This document shows positions 1 to 10,882 of a DNA stretch of 10,882 bases, piece after piece. The translations under genes were made by a program, and so were the position numbers. The stretch is from Oscillospiraceae bacterium. GTDB taxonomy: Bacteria > Bacillota > Clostridia > Oscillospirales > Ruminococcaceae. The stretch spans positions 1-10,882 of the forward strand of contig JALELV010000026.1 in NCBI GenBank assembly GCA_022768545.1. The letters are read 5' to 3'. Every line of letters starts with the position of its first letter. The stretch's first letter is position 1. The notes under the pieces are model-generated. The model saw only the letters and a program-made list of their open reading frames with translations. It was not told the DNA's origin and searched no databases.

Positions 1-44
1 CGGAAAGGCGCGGAGCAAAGCCTCCGAATCTTTCCGGTGTTTTT
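1..44 (+). terminator. Rho-independent terminator of an upstream plus-strand gene, truncated at the window edge
   Basis: cggaaag (1-7) pairs with ctttccg (30-36), with an inner ggag/ctcc stem, and is followed by gtgttttt (37-44). Confidence 0.45.
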
Positions 45-45
45 C

Positions 46-74
46 TGTGAGAACAGGCCCGAATATGCTACAAT
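46..74 (+). promoter_or_regulatory. Candidate extended -10 promoter (TGcTACAAT) upstream of the sigma-factor leader
   Basis: TG at 66-67 and TACAAT at 69-74. The -35 is poor (tgtgag at 46-51), so this is a weak call. It would give a ~280-nt GC-rich leader before the sigma start at 363. Confidence 0.3.
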
Positions 75-362
75 AAGTACGGAACTGAAAGGCATACCGG
101 GGCCCTGCCGACAGGGCCTTTGCAGGGAGAAAAAGAACAAGCTGTTTTGATATGTATACCGGCGCCGGGTGCCTTTACAGCCTCAAAAAAGCGGAACGGG
201 GCGCGGGCTTCATCAGCGGTGAGGGCCGGGATACAGGATGCGGCGGGCGGCACTGGGCCGGATGCGAGCCTGCCCCGGGGCTCAAATACCGCGATCAATT
301 ATTCTGCCGCGCGACCGGCAAAGGCGCTTTTACGTCTTTACAGGCAGGAGAGGAGGGGGAAA

Positions 363-914
363 ATGGAGGATCTTCAGATTATAGAGCTCTACTGGCAGCG
401 CTCCGAACACGCGGTGGAGGAGACGGCGTGCAAATATGGGGGGTATTTGAACCAGATCTCCTATCAGATCCTGCGGGATCCGCAGGACGCCGAGGAGTGC
501 GTGGGAGATACCTATCTGCACGCATGGAACGCCATTCCGCCCCAGCGCCCCGGCGCTTTCCGCAGCTGGCTGGGGCGCATTGCCCGGAACCTTTCCCTGG
601 ACAGGTTCCGGGCCCGGCGGGCTCAAAAGCGCGGCGGGGAGGGGACGGAGCTTTTGCTCTCCGAGCTGGAGCAGTGCATCCCCTCGGGGGAAAGGGACTG
701 GGAGGAACGGGAACTGGCGCAGCTGCTGGACAGCTTTCTGCGCGGCCGGACGGAAATTGCCCGGCTGATCTTTCTGCGGCGCTACTGGTACGGCGACGAT
801 ATCCGGCAGATGGCAGAACGCTTTTCGGTGGGGGAGAGCTATATAAAATCCAGCCTCTTCCGCACCCGGAAGGCCCTTCGGCAGTACCTAGAAAAGGAGG
901 GGGTGTCCCTGTGA
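363..914 (+). CDS. RNA polymerase sigma-70 factor, ECF subfamily
   Basis: The product begins MEDLQIIELYWQRSEHAVEE and has a region-2 pattern (DAEECVGDTYLHAW) and a region-4 HTH (EIARLIFLRRYWYGDDIRQMAERFSVGESYIKSSLFRTRKAL). There is a strong SD GGAGAGGAGGGGG 5-8 nt upstream of the ATG at 363. The in-frame upstream extension to the ATG at 120 is low-complexity and has no SD, so I chose 363. Confidence 0.85.
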   Translation: MEDLQIIELYWQRSEHAVEETACKYGGYLNQISYQILRDPQDAEECVGDTYLHAWNAIPPQRPGAFRSWLGRIARNLSLDRFRARRAQKRGGEGTELLLSELEQCIPSGERDWEERELAQLLDSFLRGRTEIARLIFLRRYWYGDDIRQMAERFSVGESYIKSSLFRTRKALRQYLEKEGVSL

Positions 915-2557
915 ACGCGGAAAAGCTTCTCTATGCCCTGGGAGATATCGGGGATGACCTGATCGAGCAGGCGGAGGACCGGCGCCCGGCACGGCGCACC
1001 GCCTTAAAATGGACGGCGGCCGCGGCGGGGCTTTTGCTGGCGGCCGGCCTTGGGATATGGGGCGTGCGTCTGCTGCCATTTTTCGGCGGCGCCACCGCGG
1101 GTGCAGGCGGCGAGGGCGCAGAGAGCGGCTCCAGCGTTTTTATGTCCTACGGCGGGCCGGTGTTCCCCCTGGATGTTTTGGAGGAAACGCCCGGGCTTTC
1201 AGCCTCCCGGGAGCTTTTGTACGACTTTTCCCCCTGGGACCCGGTATGGGTCTCCAACGAGCAGCAGCTGGCGGGGAGGAATGACCTGACGCCGGAGGAG
1301 CGGCGGGAATATGAAGAAGACCTGCAGCGCTGGTTCCCGGAGGGGGGGGATGAGCAGACCAGCACCGACCTGCTGGTGACCGACCGATACACTCTGGAGA
1401 ATTCCTCCGGGCAGGAGGCCGCCGTGACGGCTGTGTACCCTTTTACCGGCAGCTTCCAGAATCTTTCTGAGCTGACACCGGAGATTTTGACAAACGGACG
1501 GGGCGCCGGGGCAGAGCTCCTTGCCGGGGGCTACAGCGGCGGGTTTGCCGGTGCTGTCGGCGGGGAAGAAGATTCGGAGGAGCGGCTGAACCTGCAAAAC
1601 CTGGACAGCTGGGTGGGGTATTGGAACCTGTTAAAAAGCGGGGAGTACCGAGAGGACGCCCTGAGGGAGAAGGATTTCGGGCAGCTGCCCGTGACAGTAT
1701 ATAAGTTTGACGCCTGGAGCGCCCCCCACGAAGAATACCCCGCCGCCACCCAGGCCATAAGCTTTACAGTGGACGCCGAAAAGACCCGGGTGCTCACTTA
1801 CGGCTTTGAGGGCCTCGAGTGGGACAGCGACACCGGTTTTCAGCGGCACAGCTACTTTGTCCCGGACGGGATGCGCCGGAGTACGGAGACAAAGCTCCTT
1901 GCCGTGGTGGGGGAGGACATTGGGCAATACGCCCTGCAGGGCTACCAGAACGGTGGCTGCGAGGCGGGGGAGGAAATTGACGGGGTCTCCTGCACCGTCA
2001 CCCGGTACGAAAGTACCCTTCGGGAGCTTCTGGAGAGTTTGACAGAGGAATATCTGCGGGAGTACACCGATGACAGCCGCGGAAAGATCGTGGAGCAACA
2101 GCGGATTTTTGACCTGTATGTGGACGCGGAGGAGGAGTTGCTGCGCCGCTATGGGCTGCTCTCCGAAAACGGGGCGGAACGCTACGATACCGGCAGGCTG
2201 GAGGACGTCATCTCCGAGACCGGGAGCCAGCAGAGGGTGTTTTACCAGGCGTTCAAAGTGAAGATCCCGGCGGGGGGCAGCACTGTGGTGACCGCCCGGA
2301 TGACCAAATACGCCAGTTACGATTTTTACTGCTCCGGCTCGGAGAACCGGGGGATATACGGCTACGACATGGTGACGCAGCTGGGCAGCGGGCTTGCGTT
2401 TGGGCAGATAGAGGCGCAGCTGCTTCATACAGAGCAGCTGGAGATCGTCCGGCAGAACTACGGCTTTGACCTGGGCTCCGGCATCACCCGGGTGAGCATT
2501 GACCCGGCGCAGCAGCACTGCTATCTGGAGGTGCGCCGGGCACAGCGAGGGGACTGA
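911..2557 (+). CDS. Membrane-anchored anti-sigma-factor-like protein with a single TM helix and a ~450-aa extracytoplasmic domain of unknown fold
   Basis: The GTG start at 911 overlaps the sigma stop (GTGA, 911-914) and has the SD AAAAGGAGGGGG at 893-903. The N-terminus VNAEKLLYALGDIGDDLIEQAED matches the conserved N-motif of Firmicutes anti-sigma proteins encoded next to ECF sigmas. A single hydrophobic helix (WTAAAAGLLLAAGLGIWGV) follows, then a long acidic, Gly-rich extracellular domain. Confidence 0.65.
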   Translation: MNAEKLLYALGDIGDDLIEQAEDRRPARRTALKWTAAAAGLLLAAGLGIWGVRLLPFFGGATAGAGGEGAESGSSVFMSYGGPVFPLDVLEETPGLSASRELLYDFSPWDPVWVSNEQQLAGRNDLTPEERREYEEDLQRWFPEGGDEQTSTDLLVTDRYTLENSSGQEAAVTAVYPFTGSFQNLSELTPEILTNGRGAGAELLAGGYSGGFAGAVGGEEDSEERLNLQNLDSWVGYWNLLKSGEYREDALREKDFGQLPVTVYKFDAWSAPHEEYPAATQAISFTVDAEKTRVLTYGFEGLEWDSDTGFQRHSYFVPDGMRRSTETKLLAVVGEDIGQYALQGYQNGGCEAGEEIDGVSCTVTRYESTLRELLESLTEEYLREYTDDSRGKIVEQQRIFDLYVDAEEELLRRYGLLSENGAERYDTGRLEDVISETGSQQRVFYQAFKVKIPAGGSTVVTARMTKYASYDFYCSGSENRGIYGYDMVTQLGSGLAFGQIEAQLLHTEQLEIVRQNYGFDLGSGITRVSIDPAQQHCYLEVRRAQRGD

Positions 2558-2573
2558 CCGGATACAGAGAGAA

Positions 2574-2616
2574 AAAACGCCCGTCTTTGCTTTTGGGGCA
2601 AAGACGGGCGTTTTAA
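2574..2616. terminator. Bidirectional Rho-independent terminator between the convergent anti-sigma and GNAT genes
   Basis: Stem aaacgcccgtctttgc / gcaaagacgggcgttt with loop ttttgggg, flanked by an A-run on the left and a T-run on the right. Confidence 0.7.
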
Positions 2617-2625
2617 CGCGGATAT

Positions 2626-3111
2626 TTACCGGGAAATAAATTCGTAGGCCACGCGGGGGGAGCCGTCCGCCACACGGATGACACCGCAGCAGACAAAGCC
2701 GCTTTTTTCAATGAGGTGCCGCATGACCTTATTGTCGGCGTGGGTATCGATGCGCAGATGCCCGCAGCGGCTTTTGCAGAAGGCAAGGCACCGGCTGAAC
2801 ACCCCTTTTACCGCGCCGTCCCCAGCCACCCGGTGGATGGCGGCGTAGGGCTCATCCGAGAGCCAAGCCCCGTTTTCCACGGCGGCATAGGTGGGGTCAT
2901 CCCCAAAGATGAGGGCGAAGGCACCGTGCACCCCGCCCGCCTCCTCCAGAACATAGAGGTGCCCGGCGAGGATGTCCTCTTTTAAAAGGGAATCGGGCGG
3001 GTACCCGCCCGCCCACTGGGTGGGGTTTCCGTTTTGCTGCATAAACTGCCGCGCCGCGCCGTAGACGGACAAAAGCGCGGGCAGATCCTGCATCTCTGCG
3101 GGACGTATCAT
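2626..3111 (-). CDS. GNAT-family N-acetyltransferase
   Basis: The 161-aa product carries the GNAT acetyl-CoA motif context (AAIHRVAGDGAVKGVFSRCLAFCKSRCGHLRIDTHADNKVMRHLIEKSGF). The SD AGGAGG lies 6 nt upstream of the ATG at 3111. The gene sits 28 bp downstream of DegV on the same strand. Confidence 0.85.
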   Translation of the reverse strand: MIRPAEMQDLPALLSVYGAARQFMQQNGNPTQWAGGYPPDSLLKEDILAGHLYVLEEAGGVHGAFALIFGDDPTYAAVENGAWLSDEPYAAIHRVAGDGAVKGVFSRCLAFCKSRCGHLRIDTHADNKVMRHLIEKSGFVCCGVIRVADGSPRVAYEFISR

Positions 3112-3139
3112 GATGGCATGCTCCTCCTTTCAGAGCCGG

Positions 3140-3982
3140 TCATTTTCGGATAAACAGAATGCCTAAGGTGCTGGGGCCGCAGTGGCAGGAGATGGTGCAC
3201 CCGGCCTCGGTCTCAAAGGTCTCGGTAAAGTCTGCCGAGGAGGCCACCGCCTCCCGCACCGCTGTCAGGACGTTTTCGGCGGTGGGGGTGTGGGTGATAA
3301 AGACCATATCCTTCTGAAGATCCGTCCGCTCGGCCAGGCGCTCCCGGGCATACTGGCGGATGCATTTTTCAAAAGAGCCCCGGTATTTTTTGCCCACGGC
3401 CATCTTTCCGTCCTTTACCTCGATGCAGGGCTTCAGGCTCAGCAGGTTTGCCCCCAGGGCGGCCACGGCGGAGCAGCGCCCGCCCTTGCGCATGTAGTCC
3501 AGGCGGTCCAGCAGGAAGCTTGCCTCCACTTTGGGGGTGATGGCGTTTAAACGGCGGACGATCTCTTCGGCGGGCAGGCCCTGCTGCGCCATACGGGCGG
3601 CACAGAGCACCACAAGTCCCTGGCCGGTGGAGAGATTTGCGGAATCCACCGCGTACACATTGGCAAACTCCGCGGCGGCGGCGCGGGCGTTTTGGTGGCA
3701 GGAGGAGAAACCGGCGCCCAGGTTGATATGGATGACCGCGTCGTACTCCGCGCTCAGACCGGAGAAGAACCGGCTGTAATCGTACTGGCTTACGGCGGAG
3801 GTGGTGCAGAGCGCACCGCCCGCGTCCACGTGGGCGAAGATATCCGCGGGGAGAATATCCTCCCCATCCCGGAAAGATACGCCGTCCTTGAGGACATAAA
3901 GCGGGATAACGGCGATGGAATAACGTTGTAACAGCTCCGGCGAGAGATCGCAGGTGCTGTCGGAGGTGATCTTGATGCTCAT
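3140..3982 (-). CDS. DegV-family (EDD-fold, fatty-acid-binding) protein
   Basis: The product begins MSIKITSDSTCDLSPELLQRYSIAVIPLYVLKDGVSFRDGEDI, a typical DegV N-terminus. I placed the start at the ATG at 3982 (SD GGAAAGGAG) rather than the ORF-track 4084 start, whose N-terminal extension is Arg- and Pro-rich and has no SD. Confidence 0.85.
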   Translation of the reverse strand: MSIKITSDSTCDLSPELLQRYSIAVIPLYVLKDGVSFRDGEDILPADIFAHVDAGGALCTTSAVSQYDYSRFFSGLSAEYDAVIHINLGAGFSSCHQNARAAAAEFANVYAVDSANLSTGQGLVVLCAARMAQQGLPAEEIVRRLNAITPKVEASFLLDRLDYMRKGGRCSAVAALGANLLSLKPCIEVKDGKMAVGKKYRGSFEKCIRQYARERLAERTDLQKDMVFITHTPTAENVLTAVREAVASSADFTETFETEAGCTISCHCGPSTLGILFIRK

Positions 3983-4080
3983 ACGGGAGCTCCTTTCCTG
4001 TGGCCTGCGGCAGGGGAGGGGCCGGGGCCCGGGCAGGGCCGTAGCCGGGAACCGCTGCCGCGGCCCTGCTGCGCAAGGCT

Positions 4081-4119
4081 GCAAAAAACGGCCATGTGGG
4101 CCGTCCCCGGCCCACGGCC
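4081..4119 (-). terminator. Intrinsic terminator forming the 3' end of element copy A, 100 nt upstream of the DegV start
   Basis: Read on the minus strand: ggcc-gtgggccg-ggga-cggcccac-at-ggcc, followed by gtttttt. Confidence 0.6.
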
Positions 4120-4195
4120 TTAAAACTCAAGACGCCCGCCCGCAGGAGTGGGCGGATGCGTGTAAAAAGCAGCAGCATAGCTATTATTTTTTATT
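4081..4195 (-). repeat. Copy A of a ~110-nt conserved noncoding element (promoter-proximal T-rich tract, GC hairpin, intrinsic terminator)
   Basis: Copy A is the reverse complement of 10770-10872. A 37-nt block (aaaaaacggccatNtgggccgtccccggcccacggcc) matches at 36/37. A second block (gcccgcccNNNggagtggNcggatNcg) matches at 23/28. Confidence 0.6.
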
Positions 4196-4221
4196 ATACC
4201 TCCGGACAGCGGAAAATTCAA
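4193..4221 (-). promoter_or_regulatory. Near-consensus sigma-A promoter driving element copy A and, by read-through, DegV and GNAT
   Basis: On the minus strand the promoter reads TTGAAT (4221-4216), a 17-nt spacer, then TATAAT (4198-4193). The predicted TSS is near 4186. Confidence 0.6.
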
Positions 4222-4247
4222 TTCCCCCGGGACCTTTCCGCGCATGA

Positions 4248-4288
4248 CAAAAAAACGGCGTCCGGCATGGGTGCTCCATACCGGACGC
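4248..4288 (-). terminator. Rho-independent terminator immediately downstream of the flotillin stop
   Basis: On the minus strand: stem gcgtccgg / ccggacgc with a 15-nt loop, followed by ttttttt (the plus-strand A-run at 4248-4255). Confidence 0.55.
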
Positions 4289-4305
4289 TGCCGAAGGGGT
4301 AAAAC

Positions 4306-5706
4306 TTACTGCTCGGGAGCGGCTTTCTCCGCGCCCGCGTCCCCCTCTTTGGGGGTGCCAAGGTAGGTGGGGAGGTTCATACCGGCCATGCCGAACAAGT
4401 CGTTCATGGGGGGAATGGACTTCATCAGGCTGGAGACGAAGTTGGAGGTACTGCTTTCGCCGTCCTTGCCGTTCATACCGTCCCAGACGGTGATCTTGTC
4501 GATCTTCAGGTTCTTGACAGCCTCCACCTGCACCCGGATCAGATCCTCCATCTTGTCCGCGATCATCAGGCGCACCGCGTCGTTTGCGTCGCCGCCGGCG
4601 GCGCGGACCACCTCTGCCAGACCGGAGGCCTGCTTGGTGAGCATCTCCTCCATACCGCGAGCCTCTGCCTCCATCTTGGCGTAGATGGCGTCGGCTTCAC
4701 CGCGCGCTTTGCGGCGGATCTGCTCGGCTTCGGCTTCCGCCTGAAGCTCCGCCTGTTTCTTTTCAACCTCGGCCTTGACGATGATATCAGCTTCCATCGT
4801 GGCTTTATCCCTGGTGGCACGGGCAAGCTCGGCTTCCTGCTCGGCAGCGTAGGCTTCCTGCAGAGCGCGGGCGGACTGGATCTTCTCCGCAGCCACCGCC
4901 CGGCGCATGGACTCCGCCTCTTTTTCCCGGCGGATGGCGTCGGATTCGGCGATCTCCGCCTTGGCGGTGTTTTCACCCTGGATGGCCTCGGAGTTTGCAA
5001 GTGATACCCGGATGCGCTGGTCCTTGCGGGCGTTGGCCTCGCCGATGGCGCCTTCCCGGTCGGCTTCCGCCACGGAAATCTTGGCGTCGTTGATGGCTTT
5101 GGCCGCGGCCTCTTTACCCAGGGCCACGATATAGCCGGATTCGTCGTTGATGTCGGTGACGTTTACGTTGATCAGACGCAGGCCGATTTTTTTGAGCTCT
5201 GTCTCCACGTTGCTGGAGACGGCGGAGAGAAATTTATCGCGGTCGGTGTTGATCTCTTCGATATCCATGGTGGCGATCACCAGACGCAACTGGCCGAAGA
5301 TGATATCCTTGGCAAGCTCCTGGATCTCGGTGAGCTTGAGTCCTAACAGGCGCTCGGCAGCGTTCTGCATGATGCCCGGCTCGGTGGAGATACCCACGGT
5401 GAAGCGGGAAGGGACGTCGATGCGGATATTCTGGCGGGAAAGGGCGCTGGTCAGGTCCACACTGATGGACAGGGGGGTCAGGTCCAGGTACTCATAAGCC
5501 TGGATGACCGGCCAGATGAAAGCCGCGCCGCCGTGGATGCACTTGGCGGAGCTGGCGGTGCCGTCGGCGTTGTTGCCTACCTTTCCGTAAATGACCATGA
5601 TCTTATCCGAGGGGCATTTGCGGTAGCGGGAAAGCAGCACGATGAAGGTGGTGAACAGCAGCACCACGATGACGGTGATCAGAATTACGGTCGAAAAATC
5701 TCCCAT
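4306..5706 (-). CDS. floT: Flotillin-family protein (SPFH/band-7 domain with an EA-rich coiled-coil); FloT/YuaG-like
   Basis: The 466-aa product has an N-terminal TM segment, an SPFH domain and a long Ala/Glu-rich repeat region (AEQEAELARA...EAEAEQIRRKARGEADAIYAKMEAEARG). The SD AGGAGG lies upstream of the ATG at 5706. Confidence 0.9.
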   Translation of the reverse strand: MGDFSTVILITVIVVLLFTTFIVLLSRYRKCPSDKIMVIYGKVGNNADGTASSAKCIHGGAAFIWPVIQAYEYLDLTPLSISVDLTSALSRQNIRIDVPSRFTVGISTEPGIMQNAAERLLGLKLTEIQELAKDIIFGQLRLVIATMDIEEINTDRDKFLSAVSSNVETELKKIGLRLINVNVTDINDESGYIVALGKEAAAKAINDAKISVAEADREGAIGEANARKDQRIRVSLANSEAIQGENTAKAEIAESDAIRREKEAESMRRAVAAEKIQSARALQEAYAAEQEAELARATRDKATMEADIIVKAEVEKKQAELQAEAEAEQIRRKARGEADAIYAKMEAEARGMEEMLTKQASGLAEVVRAAGGDANDAVRLMIADKMEDLIRVQVEAVKNLKIDKITVWDGMNGKDGESSTSNFVSSLMKSIPPMNDLFGMAGMNLPTYLGTPKEGDAGAEKAAPEQ

Positions 5707-5762
5707 TCAGGTTTCCTCCTAAAAATATTATTCTGCCGGGGTGCCGCCCCGGGGCAAAGCGT

Positions 5763-6359
5763 TTAAGTGTCTGCGGCTGCAGAGACCGGCGCCTTTTCCA
5801 CAATAAGGGTCTGTTTATCCAGCAGGCCGGTCACCCGCACCTGGGTCCCGGAGGGCAGCGCCTCTCCGCCCCGGGTCACGGCGTCCAGTTCACAAAACCG
5901 CTCCTGCAGGGTGAGGTTCACCTTCCCGCAGCCATCGGCTGGGACAGTGAGGTAAACCCTTCCCGTGAGCCCGACGGCGGCTTTCAGATCCAGATTCCCC
6001 GATGCCTGCAGGCGGCTCATGGATTTAAACAGCAGGGCGATGACCACCATAGCCGCCCCGCCGGCCAGAAAGGCCGCCGCCACGGCAAGCGGAGGGTGGG
6101 CTCCGCCGCCCAGAACGATGCCGGTCCAGCCGCCCACGGCGAAGAAAGCCACGATGCCGCGTACCGTAAACAGCGCCAGCCCGTCGCCGGAATCCGGCCC
6201 TTCCATCGCGTCGGGCACGCCGTCCGCGTCTGTATCGGCGCCGTCTCCAAAGCCAAACAGCACCATCACCGACTGGATGGCGAGCACCAGGGTGGCCGGG
6301 ATCGCCAGATAGGCAAAGACCCGCTGCAGAAGGTTTAAGCCCTCCCACCATGCGATCAT
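5763..6359 (-). CDS. NfeD-family membrane protein (YuaF-like) with a C-terminal OB-fold, partner of flotillin
   Basis: The product has N-terminal TM helices, an acidic linker (DGADTDADGVPDAMEGPDSGDG), further TM segments and a C-terminal beta-barrel segment. The SD AGGAGG precedes the ATG at 6359. The ATG overlaps the stop codon of the upstream gene (ATGA, 6356-6359). The gene is followed 56 bp later by flotillin. Confidence 0.85.
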   Translation of the reverse strand: MIAWWEGLNLLQRVFAYLAIPATLVLAIQSVMVLFGFGDGADTDADGVPDAMEGPDSGDGLALFTVRGIVAFFAVGGWTGIVLGGGAHPPLAVAAAFLAGGAAMVVIALLFKSMSRLQASGNLDLKAAVGLTGRVYLTVPADGCGKVNLTLQERFCELDAVTRGGEALPSGTQVRVTGLLDKQTLIVEKAPVSAAADT

Positions 6360-6940
6360 GTCAATTCCTCCTTTTTCTCTGTATTTCTCAGCTGCTCCAG
6401 CGCCGCCTCGGCCTGTCTTTTCCGCATGGCGGAAAGATACGCCGGCAGGATCACCTTCAGCGCGCCGTGCAGCTTCCCCTTGGCTCCTTCCAAATTCTCT
6501 ACATAATCTTCCGTTTGCTGCGCAATGATGGCCTCCATCCGGTTGTCATCCTTTTCCGGGAGGGCCTCCCACGCTTCGATGACCTTACAGATATAGTCAT
6601 AGAGCTTAGATTCCGGAATGATATCATCGGAGCGGTCATTGGCGCTGCCGTTGATATAGGCCATCAAAAAAACTACCTTTTCCAGCTGCATGACATCCCG
6701 CAGCATGTTGATGATCAAAATCCGCGCTACCTGGTCGATATTGTAGCGCTTGTTTACCGGGCTCGACACCCAGCCTCTCTTGATCCAGTTCTGCAGCGCG
6801 GGCGCATCCATTCCGGTGAGCTCCCGCACCTGCGAGAGCATGATGCCGGACGTCACGGAAAAGATGCCTTGTAAAAATTCAAGCCCCGTCTTGTTCTGTT
6901 CGGGAGTCAGGGTGATGTGGGTACCCGGTAACTGCTCCAT
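6356..6940 (-). CDS. MerR-like HTH protein resembling the DUF1836 family; first gene of the NfeD-flotillin operon
   Basis: The start is the ATG at 6940, with SD AAAGGAGGAA and a 6-nt spacer (the ORF-track start at 6970 has no SD). The HTH signature is LSQVRELTGMDAPALQNWIKRGWVSSPVNKRYNIDQVARIL. The DUF1836 family assignment is from memory, not from a search. Confidence 0.7.
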   Translation of the reverse strand: MEQLPGTHITLTPEQNKTGLEFLQGIFSVTSGIMLSQVRELTGMDAPALQNWIKRGWVSSPVNKRYNIDQVARILIINMLRDVMQLEKVVFLMAYINGSANDRSDDIIPESKLYDYICKVIEAWEALPEKDDNRMEAIIAQQTEDYVENLEGAKGKLHGALKVILPAYLSAMRKRQAEAALEQLRNTEKKEELT

Positions 6941-6965
6941 GGTATTCCTCCTTTCGTTTGAATTG

Positions 6966-6994
6966 ATCATATCACAAGTTCATATGAATGTCAA
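6966..6994 (-). promoter_or_regulatory. Sigma-A promoter of the DUF1836-NfeD-flotillin operon
   Basis: On the minus strand: TTGACA (6994-6989), a 17-nt spacer, then TGaTATGAT (extended -10, 6974-6966). Confidence 0.7.
6979..6988. promoter_or_regulatory. Perfect 10-bp palindrome TTCATATGAA inside the promoter spacer; candidate operator
   Basis: The sequence equals its own reverse complement and sits between the -35 and -10 of the operon promoter. The first gene of the operon encodes an HTH protein. Confidence 0.3.
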
Positions 6995-7078
6995 TAGAGT
7001 TCTTTAGAATTTTTAAAAAGCTCAAACGAACCGAAATTTTCCAAACCAGCAGAGGATGTTGGCAGCTTTTGCTTTTAA

Positions 7079-7125
7079 CGGGACGGCCCGGATGGCCGAA
7101 AATAGGCCATGCCTCTTTTTTATCA
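7079..7125 (+). other. Plus-strand terminator-like hairpin with a T-run in the noncoding region upstream of the flotillin operon promoter
   Basis: atggcc-gaaaata-ggccat followed by gcctctttttt. Its orientation is opposite to both flanking genes. Confidence 0.3.
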
Positions 7126-7290
7126 AAACATGGCTCGCACTGGGAATGTTACAGCCGGGGCCGCAGACGGCAAAAAGCATTTTGAGCTCCGGATGGCCGC
7201 GCCCCTTCCCCATGGAAAAAAGGGGCTGTTTAGGGAAGGGTACAAAGCAGAGCTCTTCTGGCCTGGGATGGCCCAGACGCCCTCAAGACA

Positions 7291-7330
7291 CAAAAATCCC
7301 GCCGGGCACTTGCCCGGCGGGACGTTTTTA
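7291..7330. terminator. Bidirectional Rho-independent terminator just downstream of the membrane-protein gene
   Basis: Stem cccgccgggca / tgcccggcggg (7298-7321) with caaaaat on the left and acgttttta on the right. Confidence 0.7.
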
Positions 7331-7873
7331 AGGCCTTGCGCGCCCCATGGCGCAGCAGCAGCAGCCGAAGATCAGCAGGGCTCCCACCGTTTGAAGGGTG
7401 CCGGAAAAGACCGAGACGCTGTTGGAGAGGATGCTATAGGCGGCCAGCAGGGAAGCTCCGTAGCGGGCTATGACGATGCTGGGGATAAAGGCAAAGAAGC
7501 GGCCCGCAAAAAGCCCGATGAGAGCGAACGCCGACAGCAGGATACCCGGGAAGGGGCCGCCGGCCCAGGTCCTGCTCTTCATGGCAAGAAACAGGCCGAT
7601 CACTCCGTACAGAGCCGTGCGCAGCAGCAGGGGAACAAAGGTGAAGAGCATAACGGTCCAGTGATGCATATATCCGAACAGTTCCGCCGGGCCGCCAAAG
7701 ACCCGCATGAACGGGGCGGGGAAAACAAGGACTACAAGCCCGGCCAGCGCACCGAGAAACAAAAGGACGATGCCGAAGATCAAAGCGGCTTTTCCGCCTT
7801 TGGGAAGAAGAGCGCGCCCGGAGTAGGCGGGAGGATACTGCTGTCCATAGGGGGCCTGATAGGGTTCGGTCAT
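7328..7873 (-). CDS. Small polytopic membrane protein with a Pro/Tyr-rich N-terminus and a C-terminal CCCC motif (hypothetical)
   Basis: The start is the ATG at 7873 with SD GGAAAGGAAG. The product begins MTEPYQAPYGQQYPPAYSGRALLP, has four or five hydrophobic helices, and ends ...LLIFGCCCCAMGRARP. The plus-strand ORF 7109-7930 overlapping it is rejected. Confidence 0.65.
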   Translation of the reverse strand: MTEPYQAPYGQQYPPAYSGRALLPKGGKAALIFGIVLLFLGALAGLVVLVFPAPFMRVFGGPAELFGYMHHWTVMLFTFVPLLLRTALYGVIGLFLAMKSRTWAGGPFPGILLSAFALIGLFAGRFFAFIPSIVIARYGASLLAAYSILSNSVSVFSGTLQTVGALLIFGCCCCAMGRARP

Positions 7874-7952
7874 GGCAAACGCTTCCTTTCCTGGCAAAAC
7901 AGCGGTGCGGCGCTTGGAAGGCCGGCCTGAAAAGACGGCTGTTTTTTCTGTT

Positions 7953-7981
7953 ATTATATCAGAAAACAAAAGCTCCGGCAA
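7953..7981 (-). promoter_or_regulatory. Candidate sigma-A promoter of the membrane-protein gene
   Basis: On the minus strand: TTGCCG (7981-7976), a 17-nt spacer, then TATAAT (7958-7953). Confidence 0.5.
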
Positions 7982-8052
7982 GTAAGGGGCGGCGGTATTT
8001 CGTCCCGGGCCTTAAAGAAGGGGGCCCCGCCGCCGTCGTTTATAGGCCCTGT

Positions 8053-8081
8053 TTGACCGCGCCGTAAAAGAATGATATCTT
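8053..8081 (+). promoter_or_regulatory. Candidate promoter of the ANT gene
   Basis: TTGACC (8053-8058), a 17-nt spacer, then TGaTATCTT (extended -10, 8073-8081). Confidence 0.45.
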
Positions 8082-8131
8082 AAAGCTGTAAGGAGATCTT
8101 CCCCGCAAAAGGGGGGAAAGGAGGGAACTCT

Positions 8132-8929
8132 CTGGAAAACACGGAACAGCTGACGCGAGAGGTAAACCGCTGGATAAGGGAAATTTTGAAGGAACGGTGC
8201 GTCGGGGTGTATTTTCACGGCTCCCTGCGGTTGGGGGGCTTTAACCCCCAAAGATCCGACGTGGATTTTATCGTCGTCACAGACCGGAAGATGCCCCGAA
8301 AGGTAAAAAAGAGAATATGCGGCGTCATGATGGAGCATCGGAGCATGTTTCCGGAAAAGGGCTTTGAGTTCAGCATGGTGCTGGAGCGGTACTGCCGGGA
8401 GTTTCTTTACCCGACGCCTTACGAGCTGCACATGAGCCGCGCCTGGGAGGAGCTTTACCGAAGCGACCCGGATGCACTGCTCTGTGACCGCCCCCGGACA
8501 GACCCGGACCTGGCGAGCCATTTCCATGTGCTGCAGGTGCCGAATGCCGCCATGGATTTTGGGCCGCCGTCCTCCGAGGTTTTCTGTGAGGTGCCCCGGG
8601 AGTTTGTGGCGGCCTCCAACTGGGGAGACGTAAAGAACGCCGAAAGGGACATTGCCGAAAACCCTGTCTACACGGTTTTGAACCTTTGCCGGTTTTACGC
8701 CTTTCTCAAAGACGGCCTTACCCTCTCCAAAAAGGCAGGCGGGGAATATGCTCTTGCCTGCCCGGAGTTTCCCGGCGGGGATCTGATACGGGCGGCGCTG
8801 GCGGATTACAGCGGGGAACCGAAGGTCCGCTTTCCCGCCGGGGAGCTTTCCGCCTTTGCCTGCCGGGCGCTGGAGCTCGTCCGGGACGCCATGGAGCAGG
8901 CGGGCTTTTCCACAGAGGGACACGGATAA
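8132..8929 (+). CDS. Aminoglycoside nucleotidyltransferase, ANT(9)/AadA-like: nucleotidyltransferase domain plus a C-terminal DUF4111-like domain
   Basis: The product carries the CVGVYFHGSLRLGGFNPQRSDVDFIVVT nucleotidyltransferase motif (GS...D.D). The 5' end is uncertain. The only ATG, GTG or TTG in frame is the TTG at 8186, which has a weak, short-spaced SD. The open frame extends upstream to 8084 and encodes a typical ANT N-terminal helix (ENTEQLTREVNRWIREIL). A CTG at 8132 sits 6 nt after a perfect SD (AAAGGAGGG). The conservative coordinates are 8186-8929. Confidence 0.7.
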   Translation: MENTEQLTREVNRWIREILKERCVGVYFHGSLRLGGFNPQRSDVDFIVVTDRKMPRKVKKRICGVMMEHRSMFPEKGFEFSMVLERYCREFLYPTPYELHMSRAWEELYRSDPDALLCDRPRTDPDLASHFHVLQVPNAAMDFGPPSSEVFCEVPREFVAASNWGDVKNAERDIAENPVYTVLNLCRFYAFLKDGLTLSKKAGGEYALACPEFPGGDLIRAALADYSGEPKVRFPAGELSAFACRALELVRDAMEQAGFSTEGHG

Positions 8930-8977
8930 ACGCGCGGCGGCCCGGGGAAAATATTCGGGGTCGTCCGGGCGGAAAAA

Positions 8978-9029
8978 GAGGCAGAGCGCGCCGCGGCTTT
9001 GGGGCGCGCTCTGCCTCTTCCTTTATTTG
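8978..9029 (+). terminator. Rho-independent terminator of the ANT gene
   Basis: Stem gaggcagagcgcgcc / ggcgcgctctgcctc (15 bp) with a 10-nt loop, followed by ttcctttatttg. Confidence 0.7.
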
Positions 9030-9086
9030 CCGCAGGATGAATACGGGGCTGGGCGGGGCGCAGTTTTGGCCGGAGCGGATGGAGCC

Positions 9087-9120
9087 GAAAAAAGCGGCGG
9101 CCCCAAAAAGGGCCGCCGCA
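9087..9120 (-). terminator. Rho-independent terminator of the MlrC-like peptidase gene
   Basis: On the minus strand: stem gcggcggccc / gggccgccgc with loop ttttt, followed by ttttttcgg. Confidence 0.75.
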
Positions 9121-9160
9121 GGGGAAAGAGCCTGATGAAAATACCCGTGAAATGCAAGGA

Positions 9161-10612
9161 TCAGAAAGTGAGCTCTGCGTCCGGATCCAGAGGATAGATG
9201 GGGCGGGGCAGAAGCTTGTAGTCCCCGTCCCGGATCTCCAGATGGGTATTGCCGGGGGTAAGCGCCCAGATGTTGAGCGTCGCCATGGGCAGGAAGTCGG
9301 GGAAGAGGTAGCCCTGCTTGAGCACGACGATATGATAATCCCGTGGATTGACGCCAATGCTCTCGAAGTACTCCATACCGGTAAAGGACATATGCTCATC
9401 GGCCACGCAGATGTCCACATCGCCGCAGGAGAGAAGGGCCATGTTGCCTCTCTTGATGAGCTTGCCTACCTGCTCGCCCATGATCTCGCCGAAGCGGAGC
9501 AGAGTGCCGGTGACCGCGACGGGGGTGCTGTCCTCGTCGATGTTGGCGCCGATGGAGAGGCTGACGGTATCGCCGGGCTTGTGGTTCTTCAGCAGATACT
9601 CGTAGGCTTTTCCATCGTAGATGCTGGCGATAATGGCCTTTTTGCCGCTGAGGTCGGCGTCGGTGAGGGCCTTGAGCATGACAGTGTTGACGCCGCTGGA
9701 ACCGGCGGATGGGTTGTCGCCGCTGTCGCAGATGAACACGGGGCCGGCCGGCTCTTCCAGTGCGCGCGCCACAGACCCTTCCGCGGGCAGGGCGAGGGCG
9801 CCGTAGTCAAACTGGTCTCTCTTTTCCCAAATATAAGCCGCGAGCTCCCGGGCAGCTTTGCGGGCGTAGTCGGCATAACAGGCGGCAGAAGGGGTGATGG
9901 CTACCGTGGTGGTGGTGCGGGGGGTATCGGTCCAGGCCATGCAGACATACATGGTGGCGATGGCGATCTCCTCCTGTTTTTCCAGCTCCCACAGATGGGC
10001 GAAGATGGTCTTGAGGGGCTCCCGCGCGTCGATGGCCTTTTCACCGACCAAAATCATGGGCAGGCGCTCCATGGCAGGGTGATAGACCTCGCCGCGGCCG
10101 ATGTATCGAAGCAGCTCCCGGGCTACGATCTCCTGGTTCTCCACCACGTCGATATGAGGGGCGGAGCGGAAGCCGCGCATGATATTGAGAAGGTTCGGAA
10201 GGTCGTTGTCGTTATTGGAGTGCAGGTCCATGGCGGCGGCGATGGGCATTTTGTCGCCCACGATGTCGCGGATGTCCCTCATCAGGCGGTATTCGCCGGA
10301 GCCGATGTTTTCCACATTCATGGCGCCGTGCATCTGGAAGAAAATACCGTCCAGGTTGTCCTTTTCGCGGCGGACCACGTCCAGGATCTTGTTTTCAAAA
10401 TAGAGATAGGCATCCTCCGTCACAGTGCCGGAAGGGCCTCGGGCGGCGTAAATAGTGGGAACAAGCTCTGCTCCGGCTTCTAAAAAGACATGGGCGCCCG
10501 GAATTTTCTGAATAACATCCTCACCCTCGTAGAAATCAAATTCTTCCCGGCGGGAGGGGAAAGGGGAAAAACTGTTGGACTCATGGGAAAAATGCCCGAT
10601 CAGAATACGCAT
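9161..10612 (-). CDS. M81-family metallopeptidase, MlrC-like (N-terminal DUF1485 plus MlrC C-terminal domain)
   Basis: The 483-aa product starts MRILIGHFSHESNSFSP, a typical MlrC/DUF1485 N-terminus. The SD AAGGAGAG lies 8 nt upstream of the ATG at 10612. The plus-strand ORF 9152-10483 is its antisense shadow. Confidence 0.9.
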   Translation of the reverse strand: MRILIGHFSHESNSFSPFPSRREEFDFYEGEDVIQKIPGAHVFLEAGAELVPTIYAARGPSGTVTEDAYLYFENKILDVVRREKDNLDGIFFQMHGAMNVENIGSGEYRLMRDIRDIVGDKMPIAAAMDLHSNNDNDLPNLLNIMRGFRSAPHIDVVENQEIVARELLRYIGRGEVYHPAMERLPMILVGEKAIDAREPLKTIFAHLWELEKQEEIAIATMYVCMAWTDTPRTTTTVAITPSAACYADYARKAARELAAYIWEKRDQFDYGALALPAEGSVARALEEPAGPVFICDSGDNPSAGSSGVNTVMLKALTDADLSGKKAIIASIYDGKAYEYLLKNHKPGDTVSLSIGANIDEDSTPVAVTGTLLRFGEIMGEQVGKLIKRGNMALLSCGDVDICVADEHMSFTGMEYFESIGVNPRDYHIVVLKQGYLFPDFLPMATLNIWALTPGNTHLEIRDGDYKLLPRPIYPLDPDAELTF

Positions 10613-10713
10613 GCAGATCTCTCCTTATGTTATTTGCAGCAGTATTGGATAAAAACGTTTACATCGCGTTTTAAAAAACTTTAAACATTTACGGGCCGAT
10701 ACCGCTTAGCGCT

Positions 10714-10741
10714 ATTGTACCATAAAAATCAACAAAATCAA
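10714..10741 (-). promoter_or_regulatory. Candidate promoter of the MlrC-like gene in the AT-rich upstream region
   Basis: On the minus strand: TTGATT (10741-10736), a 16-nt spacer, then TGgTACAAT (extended -10, 10722-10714). Confidence 0.4.
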
Positions 10742-10769
10742 ATAAATTTTATAAAATCAGCATAAAAAA

Positions 10770-10872
10770 TAACCTGCGGCTATTTTTTATGCGTATCCGT
10801 CCACTCCCGTGGGCGGGCGGCATGAATCCTATGGCCGTGGGCCGGGGACGGCCCAAATGGCCGTTTTTTATA
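10770..10872 (+). repeat. Copy B of the ~110-nt conserved noncoding element, on the plus strand
   Basis: Order along the plus strand: T-rich tract (ctattttttatgcg), GC hairpin (ccgtcc-actcccgt-gggcgg), spacer, then the terminator hairpin and T-run. It is the reverse complement of 4081-4195 at roughly 80% identity. Confidence 0.6.
10833..10870 (+). terminator. Intrinsic terminator forming the 3' end of element copy B
   Basis: ggcc-gtgggccg-ggga-cggccca-aat-ggcc followed by gtttttta. Confidence 0.55.
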
Positions 10873-10882
10873 GCTTTGCGCA

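Follow-up and report, generated by a model that had tools for sequence, protein, structure and literature searches.

The repeats described here come closest to the REP (repetitive extragenic palindromic), BIME (bacterial interspersed mosaic element) and REPIN elements of Proteobacteria, which are mobilised by REP-associated tyrosine transposases (RAYT/TnpA-REP), and to the BOX elements of Streptococcus pneumoniae, which are organised as boxA-boxB(n)-boxC and resemble the Firmicute repeats RUP and bcr1. At gene ends, REP-type elements can serve to terminate transcription or to stabilise RNA. A GT[AG]G foot, with its “double-foot” variant, is the mark of RAYT-associated REPs, and classical REPs are normally species-specific (PMC6006769). 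Our comparisons use the definitions of REP, BIME and REPIN elements given in PMC6006769 and PMC3116915. RAYTs of group 1 have been reported from Clostridia (PMC5581495). A search of the literature for repeats of the REP type in Oscillospiraceae or Clostridia yielded no relevant description. In the present study we analysed a stretch of 10,882 nt (the window) from an Oscillospiraceae bacterium (GenBank assembly GCA_022768545.1, contig JALELV010000026.1, positions 1 to 10,882), which carries two inverted copies, A and B, of a hairpin-forming element; copy A lies between the promoter and the start codon of a DegV-family gene. Our findings show that the hairpins belong to a family of repeats that is modular and intergenic, and we propose that the element is quite probably one arrangement of a dispersed palindromic repeat family of Oscillospiraceae, REP/BIME/REPIN-like or BOX-like in kind. 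An earlier note, made from the sequence alone, had considered it a candidate attenuator, riboswitch-like leader or small RNA. This part of the note is not supported, because the element is absent from orthologous leaders, recurs in unrelated contexts and has no antiterminator.

The outstanding inverted repeat of the window pairs 4070-4177 with 10775-10882 over 108 nt, ungapped and 82% complementary, while the runner-up comprises 34 nt at 74%; the existence of two inverted structured copies is thereby confirmed. A gapped alignment stretches the similarity back to an A-run at about 4192, just past the -10 box next to copy A, and to 10764. In the other direction the similarity reaches the final base of the window, so that copy B does not end at 10872 as first described but is truncated where the window stops, partway through a fourth hairpin, Hd. 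The 37-nt block GGCCGTGGGCCGGGGACGGCCCACATGGCCGTTTTTT, which had been reported to agree at 36 of 37 positions and to fold as a hairpin followed by a T-run, was recovered with both properties, at 4083-4119 on the minus strand without mismatch and at 10833-10869 on the plus strand with one (0 of 200 shuffles matched). The second shared block, hairpin H1, was also verified in both copies; it lies at 4132-4161 (structural scan) and 10791-10820 (read from the sequence), and the two align together. Each copy folds as two independent hairpins, with z-scores of -2.95 and -3.68 against shuffles. The parts of the copies are as follows.

4070..4192, minus strand: copy A, repeat unit with degenerate Hc, H1, spacer, Hb, T-run and 5' half of Hd (repeat search and alignment).
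4164..4192, minus strand: degenerate Hc module of copy A, AAAAAATAATAGCTATGCTGCTGCTTTTT (consensus AAAAAATAGCCTGCGGCTATTTTTT; unit alignment).
4132..4161, minus strand: hairpin H1 of copy A, ACGC-AT-CCGCCCAC-TCCT-GCGGGCGG-GCGT, with the architecture of Hb on the opposite strand (structural scan and alignment; -17.9 kcal/mol).
4090..4119, minus strand: core hairpin Hb of copy A, GGCC-GTGGGCCG-GGGA-CGGCCCAC-AT-GGCC (structural scan and covariation; -24.1 kcal/mol).
4083..4089, minus strand: G + T6 run after Hb of copy A, giving with Hb the form of an intrinsic terminator; 5' arm of Hd in intact units (alignment and folding).
4070..4082, minus strand: remnant of the 5' half of Hd in copy A, GCAGCCTTGCGCA (alignments).
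10764..10882, plus strand: copy B, repeat unit with Hc, H1, spacer, Hb, T-run and 5' half of Hd, ended by the window end.
10764..10788, plus strand: Hc module of copy B, AAAAAATAACCTGCGGCTATTTTTT (blastn, 24/25 to the consensus).
10791..10820, plus strand: hairpin H1 of copy B, GCGT-AT-CCGTCCAC-TCCC-GTGGGCGG-GCGG (sequence, blastn and alignment; -16.1 kcal/mol).
10833..10869, plus strand: hairpin Hb of copy B with its GTTTTTT run (structural scan and 37-nt block search; Hb -22.3 kcal/mol).
7080..7110, plus strand: relic of a third copy, in which the right half of Hb adjoins the beginning of Hc, GGGACGGCCCGGATGGCCGAAAATAGGCC (repeat search; junction as in the class-1 arrays described below).

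The relic sits in the divergent intergenic region between a DUF1836 gene and a 273-aa open reading frame (ORF).

The complete unit was defined by aligning nine units, namely the two window copies, the same-species contig L022 (L numbers denote the loci compared with the window) and six further units from metagenomes. It measures about 130-150 nt and contains four hairpins in the order Hc, H1, Hb and Hd, with the consensus sequences AAAAAATAGCCTGCGGCTATTTTTT for Hc, GCGC-AT-CCGCCCAC-TCCC-GTGGGCGG-GCGC for H1, after which a spacer of about 12 nt leads to Hb, GGCC-GTGGGCCG-GGGA-CGGCCCAC-AT-GGCC for Hb and TTTTTTATAGCTTGCC-GCA-GGCAAGCTATAAAAAA for Hd. From this alignment it follows that what had been read as the U-run of a terminator is the 5' arm of Hd. 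A structural scan revealed a recurring hairpin design that consists of a 4-bp outer stem, an 8-bp inner stem, a loop of 3-4 nt and a 2-nt bulge on the 3' side that is nearly always AT. Different inner stems fit this design, among them GTGGGCCG/CGGCCCAC, GTGGCCAG/CTGGCCAC, GTGGCCCA/TGGGCCAC, ATGGGCCG/CGGCCCAT and GTGCCGTC/GACGGCAC. The inner stem of Hb opens with GTGG, closes with CCAC and is enclosed by the 4-bp outer stem; in H1 the GTGG adjoins the loop, which varies among copies (TCCC, TCCT, TTCT, TCTC). H1 of the window-type unit and h2 of the class-2 element (see below) represent the Hb design on the opposite strand, and both unit types therefore contain an inverted doublet; in H1 + Hb it is formed by one bulged-hairpin design with an AT bulge and a GGGA/TCCC loop.

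The hairpin Hb is under selection and is kept by compensatory changes. Among 19 distinct Hb sequences, which were picked by position or sequence and not by structure, 93.9% of the cells are paired and 5 of the 12 pairs have changed on both sides, and thus, for Hb, the compensatory changes that the earlier note suggested looking for were found. The covariation score of 0.205 compares with 0.061 for shuffles, none of 500 of which reached the observed value, and with at most 0.036 for slid partners. A strand-specific bias of G-U wobbles was not noticed among the Hb sequences when they were compared by eye, without a formal count, and the orientation of the copies is independent of that of the neighbouring genes. 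Both observations fit a palindrome acting at the DNA level better than a transcript-specific RNA.

The spread of the family was followed with an exact 20-mer of Hb, CGTGGGCCGGGGACGGCCCA, in GTDB representative genomes, a collection that does not contain the genome of the window. The 20-mer was found in 21 stretches from about 10 genomes, all Oscillospiraceae, with several matches per metagenome-assembled genome (MAG): Ca. Pelethomonas intestinigallinarum has 7 matches on 6 contigs, three further MAGs have 2-4 matches each, and Flavonifractor sp. An82, Ligaoa zhengdingensis, Ca. Oscillibacter excrementigallinarum and others also carry it. Flank reading and module mapping with blastn showed that Hb occurs in at least three arrangements, with single copies, inverted doublets and tandem arrays. 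Class 1 consists of tandem arrays of the three hairpins Ha (TTTTTTATTGCTCCGCAATAAAAAA), Hb and Hc (AAAAAATAGCCTGCGGCTATTTTTT), for example in L010 with a period of 89 nt, 4.7 copies and 93% matches. Class 2 is a four-hairpin element of about 165 nt whose Hb carries a GCGC/GCGC outer stem and in which 8 pairs show compensatory changes. Its copies are 93-96% alike at six or more loci of the Pelethomonas MAG and also occur in Flavonifractor An82, Ligaoa and other MAGs (L003:1798-1954, L005:1915-2071, L006:634-793, L016:595-752 and L018:388-547, as well as L007, L012, L015, L017 and L021). The class-2 element usually starts directly after a T-run or terminator.

Window-type units were sought in metagenome contigs with the H1 block TCCGYCCACTYCYGYGGGCGGGCG, which yielded six further units in five contigs. 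They lie in unrelated surroundings, next to a GNAT gene, a fragment of an ABC transporter, a tyrosine recombinase gene and, in one case, another DegV paralogue, which they adjoin at its 3' end. Two units stand in tandem in L030, with a period of 129 nt and 95% matches, and in L031 and L033 a window-type unit is followed by class-1 modules in opposite orientation. The tandem units of L030 (636-886) lie directly 3' of a different DegV-family gene (PF02645, E 2.6e-9, C-terminal fragment), which converges with a flavodiiron/ODP-like gene. DegV paralogues being common, the presence of a second DegV gene beside the repeat may be a coincidence. The unit of L032 (589-672) ends right after Hb and is followed by AT-rich DNA, and 200 nt downstream of it lies a tyrosine recombinase gene (868-1713; Phage_integrase, E 1e-23). 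An integrative element may have landed in the T-run of this unit.

The earlier note had also suggested scanning for more copies with a covariance model. Our model R1, which comprises H1 + Hb (85 nt, 24 pairs), was searched over the window and the related loci and recovered nine window-type copies at 82-113 bits, including copy A with 108.4 bits at 4082-4166 and copy B with 97 bits at 10786-10870. The class-2 doublets scored 46-60 bits on both strands and class-1 units 34-45 bits, and the DegV orthologue loci L024-L026 gave no match. All of the roughly 45 module clusters are intergenic and lie amid every gene orientation. Short-read contigs from several samples begin or end inside repeat copies, as is commonly seen with multi-copy repeats: L034 (6772 nt) begins within Hb of copy B and ends in the T-run of copy A (1-100 and 6660-6772), L023 starts in Hb (1-24), L029 ends in Hb (1508-1535) and the window itself ends in Hd (10864-10882).

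The element matches no described RNA family, in agreement with what had been said of it from the sequence. Rfam 15 at gathering thresholds gave 0 matches over the whole window, and a permissive search of 3950-4320 gave as its best sub-threshold match one with 18 bits (E 0.058). In an Rfam search of 14 related loci, no family covered class-1, class-2 or window-type elements, and a scan of the window for tRNA and tmRNA found none.

Like REP, BIME and REPIN elements, the repeats are bulged, imperfect palindromes that are rich in GC and about 30 nt long, are extragenic, occur singly, as inverted doublets and as mosaic clusters with linker motifs, and keep their hairpin by compensatory changes; the inner stem of Hb also resembles the REP “double foot” of GTGG and its complement CCAC. 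In contrast to REPs, they are found in a Gram-positive gut anaerobe, their GTGG foot is enclosed by an extra 4-bp outer stem, their core 20-mer is identical across genera, the class-1 arrays are direct tandems and not of alternating orientation, and no RAYT was found within the 216 kb of flanks. BOX elements share with them the construction from a few hairpin-forming boxes, internal modules that vary by tandem repetition and an intergenic location, and can alter the expression of their neighbours. The modules described here are shorter than those of BOX and have A-run and T-run flanks that give the terminator form, and to our knowledge there is no sequence relationship between BOX, RUP or bcr1 and the present repeat. 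The Correia/NEMIS repeats of Neisseria are likewise small non-autonomous repeats near genes that bring transcription signals such as promoters and terminators or RNase sites; however, the terminal inverted repeats and the TA target duplication of Correia elements were not seen here. Unlike ordinary intrinsic terminators, which are locus-specific, Hb is a repeated module conserved across genera.

Proteins of the DegV family are fatty-acid-binding (FakB-type) proteins. The features at the DegV locus that lie outside the repeat are the following.

3140..3982, minus strand: DegV-family gene, downstream of copy A (Pfam PF02645, E 7.7e-64).
4193..4221, minus strand: DegV promoter TTGAAT-17-TATAAT (10 of 12 consensus positions; identical hexamers and spacing in the element-free locus L026).

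On the minus strand, an SPFH/Band-7 gene (5706-4306), its terminator (4288-4258), the promoter, the element, a GC-rich leader of 100 nt and the DegV gene follow one another, and the DegV ATG lies 100 nt beyond the T-run of copy A. The terminator-shaped hairpin between promoter and DegV, 100 nt before the start, is thus located as previously stated. The stretch between the terminator of copy A and the DegV ATG contains no promoter-like site, and the deduction that DegV transcription from the promoter at 4221-4193 must read through the hairpin still stands. No repeat of the GC-rich 100 nt was found elsewhere.

DegV homologues were retrieved and the upstream regions of their loci were compared. 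L022 and L023, which are of the same species with 100% identical DegV, carry the element, as does L034, which is assigned to this species by MlrC (99%) and ends before DegV; its copy A was read directly. L034 was reached through this MlrC homologue, an exact look-up of the window's MlrC protein having returned no record. The element is 96% identical in all four same-species samples (window, L022, L023 and L034), and its terminator form is intact in each. In L026 (DegV 77% identical), the end of an SPFH-type gene, a terminator, the identical TTGAAT-17-TATAAT promoter and a 75-nt leader follow one another without the element. L024 and L025 (81%) have a TATAAT promoter and a leader of about 50 nt and also lack it, and L027 and L028 (67%) lack it in a different neighbourhood, where R1 gave only a weak match some 1 kb beyond the DegV gene (13 bits, E 0.29). 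Because L026 keeps the promoter without the element, the promoter is DegV's own, and the element was inserted afterwards, behind the -10 box and ahead of the ribosome-binding site. Copy A is therefore a lineage-specific insertion between a pre-existing DegV promoter and the start codon. Of the promoter-hairpin-terminator module described in the earlier note, the near-consensus promoter is indeed present, but it is not part of the repeated unit and is ancestral to DegV. Two further differences concern the leaders: one same-species strain has lost about 23 nt of the GC-rich leader that separates the terminator from the DegV ribosome-binding site (L023:75-81 compared with window 4005-4030), and the element-free leader of L026 (150-222) has a nested hairpin of its own, GGGCGG...GGCC-TATAA-GGCC...CCGCCC, which is either a decayed relative of the repeat or unrelated.

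In both window copies, Hb has a 12-bp GC-rich stem followed by G + U6 (folding energies of -24.1 and -22.3 kcal/mol), whereas in other arrangements it is followed by an A-run or GAAAC and lacks the terminator form. Prefix folding showed that H1 and Hb fold independently at every transcript length, and neither prefix nor constrained folding of the copy A transcript revealed an antiterminator alternative. With the 3' arm of Hb blocked, its 5' arm remained essentially unpaired (-27.9 compared with -47.4 kcal/mol). These foldings make Hb with U6 a probable intrinsic terminator, constitutive in its action, within the DegV 5' untranslated region (UTR). Transcripts from the DegV promoter, starting at about 4186, would meet H1 (-17.9 kcal/mol) and then Hb (-24.1 kcal/mol) with G + U6; termination at Hb would release an RNA of about 100 nt, and DegV would be expressed only via read-through. 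As there is no competing structure, constitutive premature termination with expression of DegV by read-through is expected, not a regulated switch. Termination at DegV would then be a side effect of the insertion and not a response to a ligand or signal, and DegV expression in the window species would likely be lower than in relatives without the insertion.

We propose that the units spread as DNA, the likeliest route being a Y1/RAYT-type single-strand transposase that is specific for hairpins and has its gene elsewhere in the genome, while local tandem duplication would explain the arrays. The bulged hairpin, the GTGG foot and the inverted doublets fit such an enzyme, which we regard as a possible agent though on balance a doubtful one. 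More speculatively, and rather unlikely in its entirety, the repeats could constitute an undescribed REPIN-like system of Oscillospiraceae, in which the invariant bulged GTGG...CCAC hairpin would be the recognition site of a dedicated, vertically inherited RAYT-like or new enzyme and the modules would act as mobile “terminator cassettes”, rewiring transcription whenever they land in a 5' UTR, as at DegV. Among the findings that, according to the earlier note, would speak against a regulatory RNA was that the element is simply the ends of a known insertion sequence; a repeat or mobile origin comes close to this, although no known insertion sequence ends in the element. The repeat had essentially no matches in plasmid, phage and viral-contig collections, and hence there is no link to a known mobile element. 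The unit ends (the A-run of Hc and the A-run of Hd) are not inverted copies of one another.

Several observations weigh against interpreting the element as a REP-like or BOX-like dispersed repeat. The Hb 20-mer is identical across several genera, whereas classical REPs are species-specific, and this identity could point to a conserved host function or an RNA role. Both window copies have a promoter-like site just upstream, which for copy B is a 9/12 site at 10729-10757 within an AT-rich divergent promoter region. A tblastn search of the 216 kb of flanks with approximate query sequences (IS608 TnpA, IS200 TnpA and E. coli RAYT) found no Y1/RAYT transposase and only spurious matches, one of which, in L001, lies antisense to a 736-aa ORF that, judged from its sequence, appears to resemble polynucleotide phosphorylase. 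Neither a target-site duplication nor a terminal inverted repeat was evident, and the nine aligned units showed no duplicated flank.

A variant of the repeat interpretation holds that the element arrived as a mobile repeat and is now maintained as a damper or factor-dependent attenuator of DegV. Its retention in four same-species samples, at 96% identity and with an intact terminator form, is consistent with such an exaptation; however, within one species such persistence would be expected on short timescales in any case, and folding revealed no alternative structure. We consider exaptation improbable.

A family of small trans-acting RNAs is very improbable. On this view every unit would encode an sRNA of about 100 nt, and the C-rich loop of its H1 (ACUCCY) would pair with Shine-Dalgarno regions. 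The position of copy A behind a strong promoter and of copy B behind the 9/12 promoter-like site agrees with this, as do the hairpin and U-run at the end of both copies and the complementarity of the loop sequences CUCCU/CUCCC, as read from the sequence, to ribosome-binding sites of the GGAG type. Yet the promoter of copy A is the ancestral DegV promoter, and no promoter-like site lies on the same strand directly upstream of the units in L030-L033, so that the terminator form is conserved and the promoter is not. In addition, units stand in head-to-tail arrays and beside oppositely oriented relatives, the H1 loop varies among copies as listed above, and the modules recombine freely.

The view that the element is a dedicated cis-regulatory leader of DegV, an attenuator or riboswitch in which H1 senses a signal and controls formation of the Hb terminator, is largely refuted by the comparisons above, and we give it very little credence. 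It would account for the order of promoter, two hairpins, U-run, 100 nt and DegV at 4221-3982 and for the lack of a promoter-like site between terminator and ATG, and the unit pair of L030 adjoins another DegV paralogue, though at its 3' end. However, the element is absent from the leaders at 81% and 77% DegV identity, in the latter case despite a conserved promoter, as well as upstream of the 67% identical DegV; the other copies do not precede DegV; the two hairpins fold independently of each other, the 5' arm of Hb having no alternative partner; and Rfam gave no match. That the 6.6-kb segment between the copies (4190-10764) is invertible, with the copies as recombination arms that swap promoters, is barely credible in spite of their inverted orientation and of the DegV promoter just inside copy A, because every independent contig (L022, L034) has the same arrangement, the window proteins include no recombinase domain, the arms are only 82% alike, and units elsewhere are single and in direct tandem.

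Other element types were considered and rejected. A CRISPR-like array would have unique spacers, of which there are none. For integron attC sites the hairpins are too short, cassettes are missing and the lone neighbouring tyrosine recombinase (L032) is XerC/D-sized. A miniature inverted-repeat transposable element does not agree with the lack of terminal inverted repeats and target-site duplication. A peptide ORF spanning the element was discarded, the sequence being a multi-copy repeat that is read in both orientations.

The analysis removes a false riboswitch or sRNA lead and describes a family of repeats at which short-read assemblies of Oscillospiraceae MAGs, those from chicken gut among them, are interrupted. 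Should the family be mobile, it would be a Gram-positive counterpart to the REPIN/RAYT systems of Proteobacteria, and the DegV locus would be a concrete case of a promoter separated from its gene by an intrinsic terminator that a repeat brought in. Only the cross-genus invariance of the Hb hairpin and its mobilising or binding factor could grow beyond this.

Some minor observations concern the rest of the window. Five sizeable ORFs (152-2557, 2626-3111, 5763-6359, 7109-7930 and 8012-8923), one of them of 801 aa, have no Pfam match at E<=1e-3; they include the ORF at 2626-3111 that had been called GNAT. The terminator regions 2570-2588 and 7931-7949 share a 19-nt inverted match (89%; AGAAAAAACGCCCGTCTTT / AAAGACGGCTGTTTTTTCT), which may be another small repeat or due to chance.

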